Of a DNA stretch of 22,505 nucleotides, positions 1,320-9,978 are shown in pieces. Origin of the DNA: a virus (lineage: Duplodnaviria > Heunggongvirae > Uroviricota > Caudoviricetes); the IMG/VR virus record IMGVR_UViG_2681813269_000007, one strand, 5' to 3'. The notes beneath the pieces are model-generated. The model was given only the letters and a program-made list of their open reading frames with translations, was not told where the DNA came from and searched no databases. The translations under genes were made by a program, and so were the position numbers. Within the stretch, counting starts at the first letter, position 1, and each line of letters opens with the position of its first letter.

Positions 1320-1901
1320 GTGAACATGGATTTTAGAATGACTGAACAACCACGGACCATAAAAATTTATAATCTGCTGGCCGGAACTAATGAATTTATT
1401 GGTGAAGGTGACGCATATATTCCGCCTCATACAGGCCTGCCAGCAAACAGTACCGATATTGCACCGCCAGATATTCCGGCTGGCTTCGTGGCTGTTTTCA
1501 ACAGTGATGAGGCATCGTGGCATCTCGTTGAAGACCATCGGGGAAAAACCGTCTATGACGTGGCTTCCGGCGACGCGTTATTTATTTCTGAACTTGGCCC
1601 ATTACCGGAAAATGTCACCTGGTTATCCCCGGAAGGGGAGTTTCAGAAGTGGAACGGCACAGCCTGGGTGAAGGATACGGAAGCAGAAAAACTGTTCCGG
1701 ATCCGGGAGGCGGAAGAAACAAAAAACAACCTGATGCAGGTAGCCAGTGAGCATATTGCGCCGCTTCAGGATGCTGCAGATCTGGAAATTGCAACGGAGG
1801 AAGAAAACTCGTTGCTGGAAGCCTGGAAGAAGTATCGGGTGTTGCTGAACCGTGTTGATACATCACTATCTCCAGATATCGAGTGGCCAAGTCAACCATA
1901 A
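1320..1901 (+). CDS. tfa: Tail fibre assembly protein (Tfa family)
   Basis: 193-aa ORF with AGAGGTGA RBS. C-terminus ...[22 protein letters not shown] is the conserved Tfa / P2 gpG-type signature. Sits directly downstream of the tail fibre region. Confidence 0.85.
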
Positions 1902-1933: not shown

Positions 1934-2899
1934 TTAATTATCAGTAGATTGTTCCTCTAGTAACAACTCAATTCTGCTTAGTATTTCTTTAGATATTTTG
2001 CGGCTATCAATTTTTATAGTTACAAAATTACCTTTATATCTAGCCGTGATCCCTTCCCCATATTTTTTCTCGTCTTTTGTTTTTTCCTCGTCGCCAACCA
2101 GAACAGAGTCAGATAATATTTGTATAATCCGTGAAGCTTCTAAATCCTCGCCGTTTTTTTTAATTGCCAGAAGATGATGAGCAGCATTGCTCATGGCAGC
2201 CATGTTTTTTTTGTAAACCTTAAACAAAGAATCTCCAGCACGAGCTGACAGTTCTCCTGGATGATTGAAGATAGCTAATATATCTTTTGGTAGACCAGCT
2301 GTATTAATACAGCGAGTGATAATATTTCTATCTATATTTTCAGCCTCGGCTAATGCTTTAACGTTACCATCAAAGTCATTTAGCTTGCGTAAGTATCTCT
2401 TTCCTCTTTCGTATGCACTAATAGGCCTATAATCGTTACCAATTTGGGATAACCAATGCATCTGTTCATCGTCGAGATCACCAATTAAGACGCGATAGTC
2501 ACATCCTGTTAATATCGCTGCTTTTCTTCTACGTGAGCCGTCAGCGACTTCAACGATTCCAGATACTTTTCTGGCGAAAGCTGGATTTTGTTGTCCAGAC
2601 GTTAGAAAAGATGGGATTAAATCGGCTAGAGAGGATTCATTTAATAAATCTTGATCGCGTTCATTACCTAGCCATACCATTGTTGCCATTTCAACTTTAT
2701 CTGCGGGAATTGTCTCTAACTTAAAGTTAACATTACGTCCGCATACTGGCAAAGTTATGCTGTTACCGGTTAATGAACTCAGTTGACGTTTTAAATCACC
2801 AACCATAGGTGATACGGGCTGATGTTCAGGGGCATGATGATTATTACTCATAATGCGATTAATATCTGGAGCATTTTTTAGAAGAGAGCGCTGTTTCAT
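1934..2899 (-). CDS. sopB: Partition protein SopB (ParB family, centromere-binding)
   Basis: 321-aa ORF colinear with F-plasmid SopB as I recall it (ITLPVCGR, WxGNERDQ, DLIPSF, PAFxRxVSG, IADGSRRRKAA, DYRVLxGxLDDEQM, GNDYRPxSAYERG, CINTAxLPK, HPGELSAR). Start overlaps the sopA stop. Confidence 0.9.
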   Translation of the reverse strand: MKQRSLLKNAPDINRIMSNNHHAPEHQPVSPMVGDLKRQLSSLTGNSITLPVCGRNVNFKLETIPADKVEMATMVWLGNERDQDLLNESSLADLIPSFLTSGQQNPAFARKVSGIVEVADGSRRRKAAILTGCDYRVLIGDLDDEQMHWLSQIGNDYRPISAYERGKRYLRKLNDFDGNVKALAEAENIDRNIITRCINTAGLPKDILAIFNHPGELSARAGDSLFKVYKKNMAAMSNAAHHLLAIKKNGEDLEASRIIQILSDSVLVGDEEKTKDEKKYGEGITARYKGNFVTIKIDSRKISKEILSRIELLLEEQSTDN

Positions 2900-4065
2900 T
2901 ATTCGTTCTCCCAGCGAGGTTTTATTAGATCATCAAAAATTTCTCGGCAAACAGGGTCCCATATAGAAACAGCATTTCTCCATGCATTCAATGTTGAACG
3001 TTGGTTTGCTGCTTGTTCAAATACTGTTCTCATTTTTATCTGGCCTTTACCTACTTCATCGGTAACGCGTACAACCTGACGTAATACCATTGATCCCCAT
3101 GTATTTCTTATTTGTTCTTCCATCCATCGTGATTGATTCCCTGTAGTGAGACTATATTTAGTCAGAAGTAAGCGAACGGTTGGCTCAAATCCACCTAGGT
3201 CAACGCTTTCCAATAGATCGAGAAGCATTGTGAAAAACTGTAGAACAGAAGCGTAATCAAATAATTCTGCAGGTGTAGCAACAACAATAACGTCAGCGGC
3301 ACAAACAACGTTAATGGTTCCTGTACCGAGGTTCGGAGCACTATCTATAACGATAACATCGTAGTTATCCCAAACTGATTCAATAGCTGCGCGCAGCATA
3401 AGGTGTGGAGGATGAGGCAATTTACCCTGAGCATGATATTGCATGAGATCTGTTTCTATACGATGTAAAGCTAGGCAGCTAGGGATAATGTCTAGCCCAG
3501 GCCAACATGTTGGCTTTATAGCATATTCAGCGTTATCGCGTTCTCCTAAGTAAAATGGCAGTAAAGTATCCTCGGCATGGATATGTAAATCAGGAACATA
3601 ACCGTGATACATAGAGGCCGTGCCTTGAGGATCGTTACCTTCAACCAAAAGAACACGATGACCTTGTAATGCTAACCATTGAGCTTGATGTACCGCAGAC
3701 GATGTTTTATAAACGCCGCCTTTGTGTGACATAACGGCAAGCGCAACAGGGTTTTTATCTTGTGGTCGTTGGTTTGGGTTGCCAAAAACTGCTCGCATAC
3801 TGTTGATTTGATCTATGGTATAACCAGCACGACGTTCAATTCTTCCTCTCATTTCAAAGTCAGGTGCAGGTAAACGCCCGCTCTTCTCAGCATCTCTAAT
3901 TGCTTGAGGAGTTACACCAATTAAATCTGCTACTTCAGTTATACCCCATCGGCGGGTGATACGCCGAGCTTCAGGACTATCATCACCGAATTGAGCGATA
4001 GCAATTGCTTTGGTCATTTCTTGACCTCTCGTAACACAATCTTGCAATAACTTTTTCAAAGACAT
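2899..4065 (-). CDS. sopA: Partition ATPase SopA (ParA family, type Ia with N-terminal HTH extension)
   Basis: 388-aa ORF with GGAGATGA RBS. Deviant Walker A KGGVYKTS, a long N-terminal extension, and the same length as F SopA. Transcribed divergently from telN. Confidence 0.9.
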   Translation of the reverse strand: MSLKKLLQDCVTRGQEMTKAIAIAQFGDDSPEARRITRRWGITEVADLIGVTPQAIRDAEKSGRLPAPDFEMRGRIERRAGYTIDQINSMRAVFGNPNQRPQDKNPVALAVMSHKGGVYKTSSAVHQAQWLALQGHRVLLVEGNDPQGTASMYHGYVPDLHIHAEDTLLPFYLGERDNAEYAIKPTCWPGLDIIPSCLALHRIETDLMQYHAQGKLPHPPHLMLRAAIESVWDNYDVIVIDSAPNLGTGTINVVCAADVIVVATPAELFDYASVLQFFTMLLDLLESVDLGGFEPTVRLLLTKYSLTTGNQSRWMEEQIRNTWGSMVLRQVVRVTDEVGKGQIKMRTVFEQAANQRSTLNAWRNAVSIWDPVCREIFDDLIKPRWENE

Positions 4066-4712: not shown

Positions 4713-6626
4713 ATGAGCAAAGTAAAAATCGGTGAATTAATAAACTCACTTGTTAGCGATGTTGAGTCAATAGATAACTCTGACCGTCCTCAAGGGGAGA
4801 AAACAAAAAAAATAAAGGCTGTTGCATTAAAATTTAAAAATGCATTATTTAATGACAAGCGAAAGTTTAGGGGGAAAGGATTAGAAAAAAGAATTACAGC
4901 CAACACATTCAATGCCTATATGAGCAGGGCCAGAAAACGGTTTGATGATAAACTTCATCATAGCTTTGAAAAAAATATACATCGCCTATCTGAAAAGTAT
5001 CCTTTATATAATGAGGAGCTATTGTCATGGCTTTCTCTACCTGCTGCCGATATTCGCCAGAGAATGTCAGCTTTACAGGCAAAATTAAAATTAATTCTCC
5101 CTCTATCAGAAGATTTATCTAATATCAGAATTGGCGATAACAAAAGTCATAATAAGTTATTGAAATTATCAAATAAATATAAAGAGTGGCAATTCGCCAT
5201 TTCTGATTTAACTAGCGATAACTGGAAAGATAAGCGCGATTATTTATATAAATTACTACAGCAAGGATCTGCCTTACTTGAGGAGTTGAATCAGCTAAAA
5301 GTTAACCATGAGATTCTCTATCATCTTCAACTAAGCCCTGCCGAACGTGCATCTATCCAGCAACGATGGGCGGACGTTCTGCACAATAAGAAACGTAACG
5401 TGGTGGTCATTGATTACCCTAAATATATGCAAGCTATTTACGATATTATAAATAGCCCTGCTACATTAAATAATCTAAACACTCGTTCAGGTATGGCTCC
5501 TTTGGCATTTGCACTTGCTGCATTGTCAGGAAGACGAATGATTGAGATTATGTATCAAGGTACATTTACTGTTTCTGGTAAGTATACCGTTGATTTTTTA
5601 GGCCAAGCTAAAAAAAGAACTTCTGATGATATAACCAGAAAAATATATACATTATGCGAAGCAAAAACATTTGTTTATTTAATAAATGTACTTCGCTCAT
5701 GCCCAGCAGCATCTGATTTTGATGATGTCGTTAAAGGTTATGGAGATAACGATACACGCTCTGAAAACGGACGTATTAATGCCATATTAGCAAAGGCTTT
5801 TAACCCGTGGGTTAAATCATTTTTCAAAGATGACCGCCGTGTTTATAAAGATAGTCGTGCTATTTATGCCCGTATTGCGTATGAAATGTTTTTCCGCGTA
5901 GATCCTCGTTGGAAAAACGTAGATGAAGATGTTTTCTTTATGGAAATTTTAGGCCATGACGATGAAAACACTCAATTACACTATAAGCAATTCAAGCTGG
6001 CCAACTTCTCAAAGACATGGAGGCCAAATACTGGAAACGAAAATACCAGGCTGGAAGCATTGCAGCAGCTTGATGACGAAATGCCTGGATTCGCCAGAGG
6101 AGATGCCGGGGTTCGTCTGCATAACACAGTTAAGCAGCTGGTAGAGCAGGACCCCTCTATAAAAATCACGAACAGCACTCTAAGAGCGTTCAAATTTAGC
6201 CCAACAATGATTAGTCGATACCTGGAATTTGCTGCTGATGCTCTGGGGCAATTTGTTGGCGAAAACGGACAATGGCAACTGAAAATAGATACTCCAGAAA
6301 TCGTTATGCCTGACGAAGAAGAACTGGAAGCAATACCTGAACTGGCGGATGAATTATCAGAGGATGACGATCTGGATGACGACGAAATTGAGATAGAGGA
6401 AGAGGAAGAGGAAGAGGAAGAGGAAGAGGAAGAGAGCGTAGAAGAACAGCAACCGCCTGCACCTTCTTCGCCTGTATCTAAGCCGGTATTTAAGCCGGTG
6501 AGAAATATTGGTGATGGCTCATACGTTGTTGAGTTTCATTATAATGGCCAGAATTATGCGTGGTCCGGCAGTGCAAACAGCCCCATGTCAGCAATGCAGT
6601 TAGCATGGCTGACATATTTCGGTTAA
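4713..6626 (+). CDS. telN: Protelomerase TelN (telomere resolvase, tyrosine-recombinase-like)
   Basis: 637-aa ORF with AGGAGAGG RBS. The N-terminus MSKVKIGELIN... and overall colinearity match N15 TelN (about 630 aa) as I recall it. An acidic C-terminal tract precedes the conserved tail. Confidence 0.92.
   Translation: MSKVKIGELINSLVSDVESIDNSDRPQGEKTKKIKAVALKFKNALFNDKRKFRGKGLEKRITANTFNAYMSRARKRFDDKLHHSFEKNIHRLSEKYPLYNEELLSWLSLPAADIRQRMSALQAKLKLILPLSEDLSNIRIGDNKSHNKLLKLSNKYKEWQFAISDLTSDNWKDKRDYLYKLLQQGSALLEELNQLKVNHEILYHLQLSPAERASIQQRWADVLHNKKRNVVVIDYPKYMQAIYDIINSPATLNNLNTRSGMAPLAFALAALSGRRMIEIMYQGTFTVSGKYTVDFLGQAKKRTSDDITRKIYTLCEAKTFVYLINVLRSCPAASDFDDVVKGYGDNDTRSENGRINAILAKAFNPWVKSFFKDDRRVYKDSRAIYARIAYEMFFRVDPRWKNVDEDVFFMEILGHDDENTQLHYKQFKLANFSKTWRPNTGNENTRLEALQQLDDEMPGFARGDAGVRLHNTVKQLVEQDPSIKITNSTLRAFKFSPTMISRYLEFAADALGQFVGENGQWQLKIDTPEIVMPDEEELEAIPELADELSEDDDLDDDEIEIEEEEEEEEEEEEESVEEQQPPAPSSPVSKPVFKPVRNIGDGSYVVEFHYNGQNYAWSGSANSPMSAMQLAWLTYFG
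6396..6431 (+). repeat. Perfect (GAGGAA)x6 in-frame hexanucleotide tandem repeat inside telN
   Basis: Six exact tandem GAGGAA units encode the poly-Glu run in the TelN C-terminal acidic linker. Confidence 0.9.
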
Positions 6627-6797: not shown

Positions 6798-7580
6798 CTA
6801 TTTATTGGTGATTTCTGCTGGCTTTAGCTGCGCGGATAACTGCTCAAGTTTTTGAACTGCCAGTTCAAAATGCGCGGGTAACGCCTTTTCCAGATCAGAG
6901 TTAATATCGGTGATGGGTAAATCACCACACGACATACTCCGCCTACCCCCACGAACAACATCACGCAACAACTCTCGTTCATACGTGCGCATGTTCCCCA
7001 ATGCCGACTCAGCAGCCGTCAAAATCCGGCGCAGTTCTGCCGTAATTGCTGGCAAATCATCAACCGTTATGGGGTTCGGGGATGGATTACGACACGCCCG
7101 ACGCAAAGCTAACCATACACCGCTAATCCAGGCATTTCGGTACTGAAAACTTTGTGCTATATCGTTAATCAGCCCTCGCAGATACTCTTTCTGCCTCCAG
7201 TTCAACGGCTCCGCTGCTCGCATTGGCTCAGGCTCGATGTAAACGTACTCTCCATTTTTGCGAATAGAGGGCAAGACTTCGTTCGTTACCCATTTGCGAA
7301 ACCGCCAAGCTGTTGTGCCTTGCTTCACCGCGTCACGGCAGCGGAGGATCAGGGTGTATAGACCTGACTCTGAAATAATATTTAGCTTTTGCTCTCCGCC
7401 AGGGGTGTAACTTAAAGTTACACCCTTTTCATCCTCATCCAGAGACATTAGCGCCTTCCGGGAATTAACGAGTCTTAAAGCATCACATACATCCTTAGCC
7501 ACAAACCACGGCTCACCGTTAATCATCACTACACGAACCTGATGCTCTTCCTGAAAGGAAAAGACTGCTAACGCGCTCAT
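6798..7580 (-). CDS. Phage antirepressor with Bro-N-like N-terminal domain
   Basis: 260-aa ORF. The N-terminus (FQEEHQVRVVMINGEPWFVAKDVCDALRL...) fits the Bro-N / KilA-N antirepressor fold. Start overlaps the stop of the upstream small ORF. Position matches the N15 anti-immunity locus. Confidence 0.7.
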   Translation of the reverse strand: MSALAVFSFQEEHQVRVVMINGEPWFVAKDVCDALRLVNSRKALMSLDEDEKGVTLSYTPGGEQKLNIISESGLYTLILRCRDAVKQGTTAWRFRKWVTNEVLPSIRKNGEYVYIEPEPMRAAEPLNWRQKEYLRGLINDIAQSFQYRNAWISGVWLALRRACRNPSPNPITVDDLPAITAELRRILTAAESALGNMRTYERELLRDVVRGGRRSMSCGDLPITDINSDLEKALPAHFELAVQKLEQLSAQLKPAEITNK

Positions 7581-7810
7581 TCAGCCTCCTTATCGCGCAG
7601 CAAGTGCGACGAGAGAGACGCAGAATATCCCTGTGCTTCATGCGTTAACTCACACGCAATCTGCAGAAGTTTTCCAGCCTCTGAGAGGTAAATCGACGCC
7701 TCACAACTGGAGACTGTCCGATGGGCTGATGATACGAGCGCATAGACCTGAGCCAGACGTTCATCCAACGATTCCAGCAGGCCAACAGTGTTCATTTTTA
7801 CCTGATTCAT
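7577..7810 (-). CDS. Small protein, first gene of the antirepressor operon (icd-like position)
   Basis: 77-aa ORF with GAGGTGG RBS 4-5 nt upstream, translationally coupled to the downstream antirepressor. The Icd-like assignment is by position only (P1-style c4-icd-ant order). Confidence 0.5.
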   Translation of the reverse strand: MNQVKMNTVGLLESLDERLAQVYALVSSAHRTVSSCEASIYLSEAGKLLQIACELTHEAQGYSASLSSHLLRDKEAE

Positions 7811-8137
7811 GCAGCCACCTCGCGCACCGGAATACGGGCAGACAATACCAGGACAAACCGGCTGGCGAACTGGCGACGAGCTTCCCGTTCAGATGACGCG
7901 ATAGTGGAAAGATGATGAATGTGGGACTTTTTGTCTGTGCGAACGACTGCCGCAAATTTGAATTTGAACATGGTATGCACTCCGTTTTATTGGTCGTGCT
8001 ACCTCCAGAGTTGCGAATCTCTTTATTGGTGGTAGCCCAGGCGGGGTTCGCAATACCGGTAAACGAAGAAACCGGCCCGACCGAAGTCAGCCCCACCTGA
8101 GCCACCATAATTCGGATATGCGCAGGTCTATACACAT

Positions 8138-8213
8138 AAAAAAACACGCTGGCGCGTGTTGTGCGCTTCGTTTTGCCAGGATTGCGAAGTCCCGACTGCG
8201 GGATTTACCGCAG
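8138..8213 (-). ncRNA. Candidate small regulatory RNA (c4/cA-like) upstream of the antirepressor operon
   Basis: On the minus strand: -35 TTGACG (8250-8245), -10 TAAAGT (8226-8221), then about 75 nt ending in an intrinsic terminator (ACACGC-GCCA-GCGTGT plus U7, 8159-8138). The predicted RNA has a 5' hairpin CUGCGG-UAAAUC-CCGCAG. No convincing ORF in the region. Confidence 0.3.
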
Positions 8214-8263
8214 CGAGGTGACTTTACCTCCAAAACGACGCACACGTCAATAATTTGCAAAGA

Positions 8264-8300
8264 CATTTTACCCCGTGACCAGTCACGGGGACAGGTGTTT
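8264..8300. terminator. Hairpin separating the lipoprotein cargo block from the anti-immunity promoter region
   Basis: CCCCGTGAC-ca-GTCACGGGG lies just after the lipoprotein stop (8352, minus strand) and is followed on the plus strand by ACAGGTGTTTTTAT. Confidence 0.4.
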
Positions 8301-8351
8301 TTATAGTTTGCTTGAACAAACGATCAGAACATGAACAATGTTATTGTTCCG

Positions 8352-9164
8352 TTATAAGAAAGCCTCACGCGAACGGAACACCCACTCTAGCTGTACTGGA
8401 TAAATTTCTCCCGTTTTAATATTTATTAGGCGCGCGGCTAATAACTCACCCATAAAAACCTGAGTTTTATGGCTCATATCTGACGGGTTAAAAATAGTAG
8501 GTGATGTTATATCAATATGATTACTGCTTAACCCATTTATCTTTGCTAAATATTCAATTCTAAGGTCTTTTACATTAACATCTTTTGGTATTTGTCCTTT
8601 TATATCAATATCTGCCCATATTGTTTCAGGGTTCCCTTCATTTATTTGTGTACTACCAAAGATAATTTCGGCACCTAAAGTATTTAACACTTCTACATCA
8701 GCAGATATTCCAAAAGCATTAGCACCAACATAGCTTCCATGCTTTGTTATTTCAGAGGAATCGACATGAAAACCATACCATCCAGACATATCTCGAGATG
8801 TTATCACGCTATCACTACCGCTATTCTCAACAAAATCACGGTTAAGATATGTTCCTGAGTATGTGATACTTCTAGGGATAGACAAACCTTGAGATGTTAA
8901 AACGTTGTTGTATGGCGCGTATGTTAATGAGTGAACGACATATCCACGCCATAAACCATCATCTATCTTTGATGCAATAATTCTATTAAATTCCTTACCT
9001 GTGAGTATTTTGCTGCTAAAATCACCAACAGAGTTGATAGGTACTCTTTTTTCTTTTTCGAATTTATACTCAACGTCCGTTGATGCCTTATTATCATATT
9101 GATAAGTGCATCCAGATAATAACAAGATAGAGAGTAATAAAGCTGTTGTTTTTTTGTTACGCAT
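8352..9164 (-). CDS. Lipoprotein of unknown function (AT-rich cargo gene)
   Basis: 270-aa ORF with signal peptide and lipobox (MRNKKTTALLLSILLLSGC). The gene is markedly more AT-rich than its neighbours and has its own AT-rich upstream region. Confidence 0.8.
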   Translation of the reverse strand: MRNKKTTALLLSILLLSGCTYQYDNKASTDVEYKFEKEKRVPINSVGDFSSKILTGKEFNRIIASKIDDGLWRGYVVHSLTYAPYNNVLTSQGLSIPRSITYSGTYLNRDFVENSGSDSVITSRDMSGWYGFHVDSSEITKHGSYVGANAFGISADVEVLNTLGAEIIFGSTQINEGNPETIWADIDIKGQIPKDVNVKDLRIEYLAKINGLSSNHIDITSPTIFNPSDMSHKTQVFMGELLAARLINIKTGEIYPVQLEWVFRSREAFL

Positions 9165-9253: not shown

Positions 9254-9661
9254 TCAATCAACTTTTTTAGCATCAGCCATACGTTTCAACCAGTAATCAA
9301 CAATCGGCTGCTCATCCACAGAATGTTTACCAGGTATAACTCGCCAGCTATCTTGCGAAAATCTGCCGTACTTACGCGGGAATAGGCCTTTCTTTATCTC
9401 CCGCCATGTACTAGGAAAACCATCCACAAAAGTACCAATTAACAGGAGAGGGACAAAAATCAGAGCTACAAACCATCGTGCAAGAAAGTGTTCAACAACA
9501 ACATTTTCACCGTTGTAGTAATACGCATACGCATCCAATATGCGAATTTTCCTTACCTTAAAAATAGCCTTATGCTGAGAACGACTTAACTTGATACGAA
9601 TGTATCCCTTATCCAAAGGGGATTCGTATTTGTATGATTGAACAGCCATTTTTAACCCCAC
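9254..9661 (-). CDS. Small membrane protein of unknown function
   Basis: 135-aa ORF with GGGG-containing RBS and one clear hydrophobic helix (FLARWFVALIFVPLLLIGTFV). Overlaps the upstream ORF by 10 nt. Confidence 0.6.
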   Translation of the reverse strand: MGLKMAVQSYKYESPLDKGYIRIKLSRSQHKAIFKVRKIRILDAYAYYYNGENVVVEHFLARWFVALIFVPLLLIGTFVDGFPSTWREIKKGLFPRKYGRFSQDSWRVIPGKHSVDEQPIVDYWLKRMADAKKVD

Positions 9662-9978
9662 TCACCATCAGCAAACAAAGCGTTATACTCTGACAATGGT
9701 AGACGGTTGCCCTCGATGTAGAGATTCAGTTCATACTTCGTCTCCGGGTTTTCCTTGTCGGCTCGTTCCCAACGCTCAGCAGCCTCACGCGCCAATAATT
9801 CCACTGCTTTCAGATAATCCTCCGTACGGAACCAGCCAAAGATAAGGCCACGATCTGTTACAGCCCAGGCAACCTTTTTTTCTTCCTCCTGGATAGCCTT
9901 AATGCGTCGATCGCATTCATCCCGGCAAAACTGCAGCTGACGGTAATCAAGTTTGTCCAAAAATGCAGTAGTAGACAT
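9652..9978 (-). CDS. Hypothetical protein (first gene of the three-gene cargo block)
   Basis: 108-aa ORF with GGGGAG RBS 7 nt upstream of the ATG. No recognisable motifs. Confidence 0.6.
   Translation of the reverse strand: MSTTAFLDKLDYRQLQFCRDECDRRIKAIQEEEKKVAWAVTDRGLIFGWFRTEDYLKAVELLAREAAERWERADKENPETKYELNLYIEGNRLPLSEYNALFADGEWG

Follow-up and report, generated by a model that had tools for sequence, protein, structure and literature searches.

The minus-strand region upstream of an icd-like gene and two antirepressor genes is very probably the regulatory head of an immA-type operon in an N15-family linear plasmid prophage, built as a processed antisense-RNA switch of the c4/CI/CA type. 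The stretch of DNA analysed (22,505 nucleotides of the virus record IMGVR_UViG_2681813269_000007; hereafter the window) holds this locus between a 1331-aa repA-like open reading frame (ORF), upstream, and a protelomerase gene, downstream, in synteny with N15, YDC107_1 and phiKO2. At the nucleotide level, the region shares 99% identity with Escherichia phage PhiR46_1, 82-89% with YDC107_1, 78-81% with N15 and about 79-81% with Klebsiella telomere phages. It is present in hundreds of linear-plasmid prophage records, and matches were obtained in roughly 470 public phage and plasmid records. By these comparisons, the window represents a telomere phage-plasmid of the N15 family, and the locus is placed at the position of the N15 immA (secondary immunity) region because of both synteny and similarity (repA upstream, telN downstream, then icd, antA and antB). 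In N15, immA has been described as an icd-antA-antB operon (PMC4488713; PMC10612081).

As judged from its sequence, the element is an orthologue of the N15 CA system, and this kind of switch is already well known. There is nothing new in kind about a c4/CI/CA switch with an isrK-like partner, which has been described in P1, P7, P4, N15 and Gifsy-1. The features of the locus are listed below.

8221-8250, minus strand: predicted sigma-70 promoter of the anti-immunity operon (Pa-like), with the -35 hexamer TTGACG at 8250-8245, an 18-nt spacer and the -10 hexamer TAAAGT at 8226-8221.
8139-8214, minus strand: short leader RNA of the isrK / c4-a1b1 / P4-seqA type (Rfam RF01394).
8181-8188, minus strand: a1, the upstream copy of the a target, UUCGCAAU, located in the hairpin 2 loop, an 8-bp Watson-Crick match to a' of the C4 RNA.
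8166-8173, minus strand: b1, upstream target copy AAACGAAG, an 8-bp match to the b' loop of the C4 RNA.
8138-8160, minus strand: intrinsic terminator, with a stem at 8160-8143 (AACACGC GCCA GCGUGUU) and a U-run at 8142-8138.
8025-8112, minus strand: C4/CA-type antisense RNA (Rfam RF01695), a 17-bp closing stem around two hairpins.
8061-8068, minus strand: b', recognition segment CUUCGUUU, situated in the second hairpin loop of C4.
8047-8054, minus strand: a', recognition segment AUUGCGAA in the single-stranded C4 junction.
8007-8022, minus strand: leader hairpin AGAG-AUUCGCAA-CUCU (helix 7), whose loop presents a2, UUCGCAA (8017-8011).
7980-7987, minus strand: b2, AAACGGAG, an 8-bp match to b' that includes one G-U pair.
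7807-7971, minus strand: icd-like gene of 54 aa, first cistron of the operon (NCBIfam NF033153 phage_ICD_like, 67 bits).
7577-7810, minus strand: antA-like gene of 77 aa (PHROG 10889 anti-repressor, 67.6 bits).
6798-7580, minus strand: antB-like gene of 260 aa, Bro-N / Ant family (Pfam Bro-N, 77.8 bits; PHROG Ant families).
4713-6626: protelomerase (telN) gene, with four TelK domains (Pfam).

Two RNA elements and the operon behind them

When the whole window was scanned with the Rfam models at their curated thresholds, two adjacent minus-strand matches were obtained, one to C4 and one to isrK. The C4 antisense RNA model (RF01695) matches 8112-8025 from end to end (model positions 1-87 of 87) with 82.3 bits, against a cut-off of 45. 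This segment folds into a three-way junction with a minimum free energy (MFE) of -48.1 kcal/mol (z = -5.56), a stability reached by none of 200 shuffled sequences, and the MFE structure is the consensus fold of the family. From homology with the annotated ends of P1 c4 (77 nt), the mature form is predicted to be a 79-nt RNA spanning 8106-8028, with a 5' G following AU and a 3' end in CCACC. All the defining sequence features of the C4 family that lend themselves to analysis in silico were found, and they identify the multi-branch structure at 8112-8025 as the predicted c4/CA-type regulator itself.

The second match lies just upstream. The isrK model (RF01394) covers 8214-8139 in full length with 52.8 bits, a small margin over its cut-off of 50. 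The related model c4-a1b1 (RF03163), which represents the a1/b1 targets of the C4 RNA, gave 24.8 bits on 8227-8173 (E = 3.8e-4) in a permissive scan, below its cut-off of 46.7; this cut-off is passed by P1 and by the relatives phiKO2, L070 and L133. The alignment also shows that hairpin 2 of the window copy carries a 2-nt insertion relative to its relatives. Membership of isrK is thus marginal by score and is backed by position and conservation. The short RNA consists of hairpin 1 (8214-8195), hairpin 2 (8194-8177) and the terminator, with b1 placed 7 nt past a1 and 5 nt ahead of the terminator stem. Its fold (-27.3 kcal/mol, z = -2.4) is less exceptional than that of the C4 junction.

The signals that delimit this short unit are conserved. 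Transcription is predicted to start near 8214 on the minus strand. A consensus scan for promoters is by itself no better than chance (one site found, 1.9 expected in 1.2 kb). All 13 N15-family loci of a first alignment (A1) share the same -35 hexamer. So do all but two of the 23 loci in a second one (A2), where the two most distant loci depart from it (the hexamer is altered in L038, and it is offset in ARM81ld). Among the N15-family loci, the -10 hexamer hardly varies (TAAAGT, TAGAGT or TACAGT). The terminator stem has 7 bp, four of them G-C, is conserved with 98.8% of positions paired and with compensatory changes (helix 3), and matches terminators annotated in the N15 and phiKO2 records. 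The predicted primary transcript thus runs from about 8214 to 8139, roughly 76 nt. We looked for a conserved antiterminator that would compete with the 8160-8143 stem and found none. Two candidates were rejected, a weak 4-bp pairing GCGC/GCGC and the window-specific CUUCG/CGAAG, neither of which is conserved.

These results confirm much of the initial annotation of this DNA and reverse one of its assignments. The minus-strand promoter TTGACG-18-TAAAGT, the strong terminator about 75 nt further on and the multi-branch dyad at 8020-8110 are all there, the last as the closing stem and two hairpins of 8112-8025. The attribution to a c4/cA-like RNA system of an N15-like icd-antirepressor operon also stands, with the roles of the two RNAs swapped. 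Since Rfam places C4 at 8112-8025 and isrK at 8214-8139, what had been taken for a mere structured leader is the c4-type RNA, a homologue of P1 c4, and the promoter-terminator RNA that had been read as c4-like is instead of the isrK / c4-a1b1 / P4-seqA type and bears target copies. The general idea of a small RNA controlling readthrough or translation of the antirepressor is retained. The homologous short IsrK of Gifsy-1 does work in trans, although as an activator and not as a repressor of the c4 kind (PMC4825925).

The same tandem of isrK and C4 is found with Rfam in N15, phiKO2, P4 and an Stx2 phage, and the GenBank record of the Stx2 phage annotates both RNAs. An 'IsrK-C4' pair has been noted as common to P4, P1, P7 and N15 (PMC3632133). 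Public plasmids such as NZ_CP101200 and phage PhiR46_1 carry the identical sequence under the labels 'ash family protein', 'Icd-like protein' or 'hypothetical protein', which should be corrected to two RNA genes.

Downstream of the C4 segment, the leader contains a second copy of each target. The a2 segment (8017-8011) is a 7-bp match to a', and it is followed after 23 nt by b2, which contains the Shine-Dalgarno sequence of icd (GGAG, 7983-7980) and ends 8 nt ahead of the ATG at 7971. A helix between b' and b2 is thus predicted to occlude the putative ribosome-binding site of icd. The three genes of the operon are coupled, both the icd/antA and the antA/antB junctions being overlapping ATGA sequences. 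In the phiKO2 record, the homologue of icd is labelled as N15 icd-like and Gp28 as 'similar to N15 AntA'.

Covariation of structures and pairing segments among relatives

The comparison of pairing segments drew on 25 distinct loci, taken from annotated phages, from plasmids and from viral contigs, and the structure alignment on 23 distinct loci. A scan of viral contigs with 14-mers was set aside, as most of its 120 loci were chance matches and only about 20 carried the element according to nhmmer. Over the 23 loci, the seven specified helices (two hairpins of isrK, the terminator, three helices of C4 and the leader hairpin) are 98.4% paired, and in 19 pairs both partners have changed. This was never reached in 500 column shuffles, and controls in which the helices were slid by 1-3 columns gave at most 6 compensatory pairs. 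Within this total, the C4 helices (4-6) are 98-100% paired and contribute 10 compensatory pairs; such pairs are also present in helices 1 and 3 of the short RNA. The covariance analysis across related phages that the initial annotation had proposed as a check therefore speaks for structured RNA.

Pairing between the separate segments was analysed by extracting them with anchors. Counting by MAFFT columns was dropped because the row of the window was off by 1-2 columns in hairpin 2 and because the b segments were gappy. In all 25 loci, a' matches both a1 and a2 perfectly, with at least 7 Watson-Crick bp, even though eight types of a occur among them. Similarly, b' pairs with b1 and with b2 over 6-10 bp, and the end of b2 always lies 6-14 nt ahead of the ATG of icd. 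The variable blocks of this otherwise conserved leader are exactly the six a and b segments, which change jointly. Cognate duplexes have mean predicted energies of -24.0 kcal/mol for the upstream targets and -22.7 kcal/mol for the downstream ones, against -13.7 and -14.5 kcal/mol for non-cognate combinations. No second pair of a and b motifs exists elsewhere on the minus strand of the 22.5-kb window. When the C4 RNA and the downstream leader of the window alone were treated as one continuous duplex, the result was not significant (z = -1.6). This test was replaced by motif co-occurrence and covariation, since two separated sites require another model. The case for a2 and b2 as predicted targets is consequently one of covariation, not of duplex energy.

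The pairing segments do not vary as one block. There are 19 combinations of a and b in the 25 loci (counting pairing segments of different length separately), and a single a segment, UUCCUAC, is found with five different types of b. As a modest comparative finding, the a and b specificity modules appear to reassort among relatives. A bolder reading, possible and on balance rather unlikely, is that the modules are swapped independently among N15-like phage-plasmids to form a two-key combinatorial code of heteroimmunity under diversifying selection, in which the short isrK-like RNA would be a dedicated decoy and the balance between it and the processed C4 RNA, governed by terminator readthrough, would decide the expression of the antirepressor. 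The three-way covariation with reassorting modules is in any case a clean natural data set of 'compensatory mutations', and it could be used to study the evolution of specificity in two-site RNA-RNA recognition and the avoidance of cross-talk among co-resident phage-plasmids.

A candidate scheme of control and its alternatives

The data are best accounted for by the following scheme. The promoter at 8250-8221 looks constitutive and would initiate near 8214. Most transcripts would end at the terminator (8160-8138), giving the ~76-nt isrK-like RNA that bears a1 and b1. Those that read through would hold the junction RNA at 8112-8025, which may be excised from the leader as a stable RNA of ~79 nt, its 5' end being cut by RNase P if the analogy with P1 c4 and P4 CI holds. 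Acting in trans, this RNA would pair through the b' hairpin loop and the a' junction segment with b2, at the Shine-Dalgarno sequence of icd, and with a2, in the loop of the leader hairpin. The pairing would stop the translation of icd and, with antA and antB coupled to it through the ATGA overlaps, switch off antirepressor synthesis. The untranslated leader would be open to Rho, and polarity is a likely amplifier. Either translation or termination may be the dominant step.

The a' and b' segments would also bind a1 and b1, whether these lie in the leader as it is being transcribed or in the short RNA; the role of this contact is the least certain step of the scheme. The pairing may reinforce premature termination, as in the model for N15 and P4, and so provide autoregulation, although the search turned up no conserved antiterminator to account for such an effect; alternatively, the short RNA may titrate the regulator and lift repression, as in the model for IsrK of Gifsy-1. 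According to its title, the work of Ravin, Svarchevsky & Deho (1999, Mol Microbiol 34:980) has the N15 antirepressor controlled 'by a small processed RNA'. The N15 CA RNA is reported to act through premature termination. The c4 RNA of P1 is processed from the leader and represses the synthesis of Ant in trans (PMC8546580; PMC12197685), and the CI RNA of P4 pairs with seqA and seqC to cause premature termination (PMC4825925; PMC3632133). A further report, PMC13502914, concerns another sRNA.

The alternative that survives best makes positive control of the IsrK type the main job of the upstream unit: the short RNA would pair in trans with a' and b', on the readthrough transcript or on the mature C4 RNA, and derepress icd. 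We regard this as quite possible, while leaning against it. The element is an Rfam isrK member, its a1/b1 pairing with a' and b' has been kept by covariation, and in Gifsy-1 the readthrough transcript is inactive, and the short IsrK binds to it and switches on translation of the antirepressor encoded downstream; a processed RNA, STnc1160, comes from the region past IsrK (PMC4825925). Against this, a1/b1 (seqA) has been described in P4 and N15 as a target through which the C4-type RNA brings about termination, an effect that represses instead of activating (PMC3632133; PMC4825925). For the C4 part, this alternative fits the preferred scheme and differs from it solely in the role of a1 and b1.

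A purely cis-acting attenuator, in which a1/b1 would pair with a'/b' within one transcript and no diffusible RNA would be made, is improbable. The long-range pairing is possible (-28.8 kcal/mol), and 'structure A' of Gifsy-1 is a comparable cis helix. Yet the MFE structure of the whole leader retains the independently folded modules and not the long-range helix, the homologues c4, CI and CA have been described as processed RNAs that act in trans, and the second copy of the targets at the icd ribosome-binding site, which co-varies with a' and b', would be superfluous for a switch made of a1 and b1 in cis. At the level of sequence, pairing of a1/b1 with a'/b' in cis looks the same as pairing in trans.

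It is very unlikely that the ~76-nt RNA at 8214-8139 is itself the c4/cA-like antisense repressor and the structure at 8110-8020 a mere leader target. The short unit does have its own promoter and terminator, and it is complementary to the downstream structure over about 30 nt (-28.8 kcal/mol, z = -3.7). It is nevertheless the downstream segment that yields the full-length C4 match and aligns with the experimentally defined P1 c4 RNA; the short unit fits the target-bearing elements isrK and c4-a1b1 and is not itself complementary to the ribosome-binding site of icd, with which it instead shares sequence (a1 is identical to a2, and b1 nearly so to b2).

It is hardly credible that the conserved block 8108-7988 codes for a small protein (of the Ash family, or the orf45 product of Gifsy-1) instead of, or besides, an RNA: the ORF from the ATG at 8108 does score on Pfam PF10554 Phage_ASH (42.9 bits, cut-off 26), eight E. 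coli plasmids in RefSeq have the identical 88 nt annotated as 'ash family protein' and translation of orf45 has been reported in Gifsy-1, but this ATG has no preceding Shine-Dalgarno sequence, loop indels of 1-2 nt shift its frame in relatives so that the frame changes past the loop, substitutions within the helices are compensatory, and Phage_ASH also matches the old 'cI' ORF of P4 and gp32 of N15, both of which overlie a C4-family RNA. Because of the frame-shifting indels and of lengths that vary from 15 to more than 59 codons, we do not consider this ORF a conserved coding sequence. The initial annotation, which saw no credible ORF, was essentially right in spite of the Phage_ASH hit, and the conservation as a short coding sequence alone that it had named as evidence against an RNA is not what the relatives display, as the helices co-vary and the ORF is not conserved.

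Comparison with known systems

The immI region of P1 and P7 (c4, a1/b1, a2/b2, icd-ant1/2) corresponds one-to-one to the architecture of the window. The curated layout in P1 is a1, 7 nt, b1, c4 (77 nt), a2, 22 nt, b2, icd and the overlapping ant1. The spacing between a1 and b1 is 7 nt in both, and that between a2 and b2 is 23 nt in the window and 22 nt in P1. In both, b2 overlaps the ribosome-binding site of icd, the stop of icd overlaps the next start, and the c4 RNA belongs to the same Rfam family. The upstream units differ in the model that they fit best: in P1, c4-a1b1 gives 51 bits and isrK only 35, and the reverse is observed in the window. P1 has a C1 operator on the c4 promoter. The antirepressors also differ, Ant1 and Ant2 in P1 against AntA and the Bro-N protein AntB in the window.

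In P4 (CI RNA or seqB, with seqA and seqC), an isrK-like seqA unit precedes an RNA of the C4 family that is processed from the leader, an order also seen in the window, and the RNA pairs with one upstream and one downstream site (PMC3632133; PMC4825925). The P4 system targets replication genes (the alpha operon) and not an antirepressor, and its two RNAs are 107 nt apart, against 26 nt in the window.

The IsrK/STnc1160/orf45-anrP system of Gifsy-1 (Hershko-Shalev et al. 2016, PMC4825925) also combines a short terminated RNA with a readthrough transcript, has a processed RNA located past the short one and controls an antirepressor gene. The complementarity between the short RNA and the structured region downstream is again of about 30 nt. 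It differs in that the short RNA is described as an activator and that the structured region is regarded as orf45, a translated gene (PMC4825925). In the window, the corresponding ORF is not conserved, and a separate cistron, icd, bears the regulated ribosome-binding site. Binding of Hfq by IsrK and activation of antirepressor translation in trans are known only for Gifsy-1 (PMC4825925).

The closest system is immA of N15 (CA RNA, icd-antA-antB), which occupies the same position between repA and telN and has the same order of promoter, isrK-like unit with terminator, C4-type RNA, icd, antA and antB. The two loci differ in their specificity segments: a' is GUUGAGAA in N15 and AUUGCGAA in the window, b' is CUUCUUGU in N15 and CUUCGUUU in the window, and all four target copies have changed to match. 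Predicted cross-pairing between the window and N15 is about -12 kcal/mol, compared with -19 to -23 kcal/mol for cognate pairs. This weak cross-pairing makes heteroimmunity likely, and the phage of the window and N15 are probably heteroimmune at this locus. We thus predict that the anti-immunity specificity of the phage-plasmid in the window differs from that of N15.

Recognition modules of the C4 system

The C4 RNA, an antisense RNA and the predicted switch of the icd-antA-antB operon, carries segments a' and b', which have target copies upstream (a1, b1) and downstream (a2, b2). Among 25 related loci (e.g., L001, which is N15, L003-L008, L011-L016, L070 and L133), we found eight types of a and 19 combinations of a and b, a count that treats pairing segments differing in length as distinct types. 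The three copies of each module vary jointly across these loci. This suggests that immunity specificity is exchanged as modules among phage-plasmids.

RNA elements beside the C4 RNA

In P1, a hairpin followed by a U-run (CCGCA...TGCGG TATTTTT; L138 48277-48311) lies between b1 and c4, as in the window. At this place the model of isrK, the short leader RNA, reaches 35 bits and so falls short of its cut-off. Given this hairpin, the isrK-type terminator seems to be a general, under-annotated component of c4 loci.

The minimum free energy fold of the full leader predicts an additional hairpin (8117-8138, minus strand) in the 26-nt spacer separating the terminator from the C4 RNA. Its core, CCTGCGCA, is kept in relatives, and the predicted structure may be relevant to 5' processing. 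In one viral contig (L035 10460-10517), the 3' half of the C4 region is matched a second time, partially and at 27 bits, about 90 nt upstream of that contig's complete locus; this copy may be a remnant duplication.

Models coinciding across RNA and protein

Conceptual translation of the C4-family RNA matches the Pfam family PF10554 (Phage_ASH), and the NCBI name "ash family protein" falls on the same translated RNA, in three elements:

Window, 8025-8112, minus strand: C4 RNA overlapped by Phage_ASH and the NCBI name
P4 (L137), 8168-8584: the same overlap
N15 (L001), 2748-3038: the same overlap

The reading frame of the ash-type ORF is not conserved among relatives, and on eight E. coli plasmids RefSeq gives this label to a sequence identical to that at 8025-8112. 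This part of the Phage_ASH family, at least, looks like a spurious protein model on top of an RNA gene. Elsewhere in the window, the IS009 "sRNA" family (Rfam RF02111; 220 bits; 1669-1867, plus strand) coincides with protein-coding sequence: this strong match lies wholly within a 193-aa ORF (1320-1901) that matches tail-fibre-assembly PHROGs (1e-98).

The interval between repA and immA

Upstream of the promoter, this interval contains:

8272-8291, minus strand: G+C-rich hairpin with a perfect 8-bp stem, CCCCGTGA-CTGG-TCACGGGG
8352-9164, minus strand: 270-aa ORF, directly upstream of the promoter
9254-9661 and 9652-9978, minus strand: listed with the 270-aa ORF

The hairpin follows the upstream ORF, precedes the promoter and has no U-run behind it; it could serve the cargo gene as a terminator or insulator. 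The 270-aa ORF had no match in Pfam, NCBIfam or PHROG and may be cargo. In Klebsiella telomere phages, the interval between repA and immA (the secondary-immunity locus of N15) is where telocin toxin-immunity cassettes lie, and Kpn74 has a colicin-like pore-former at this position.
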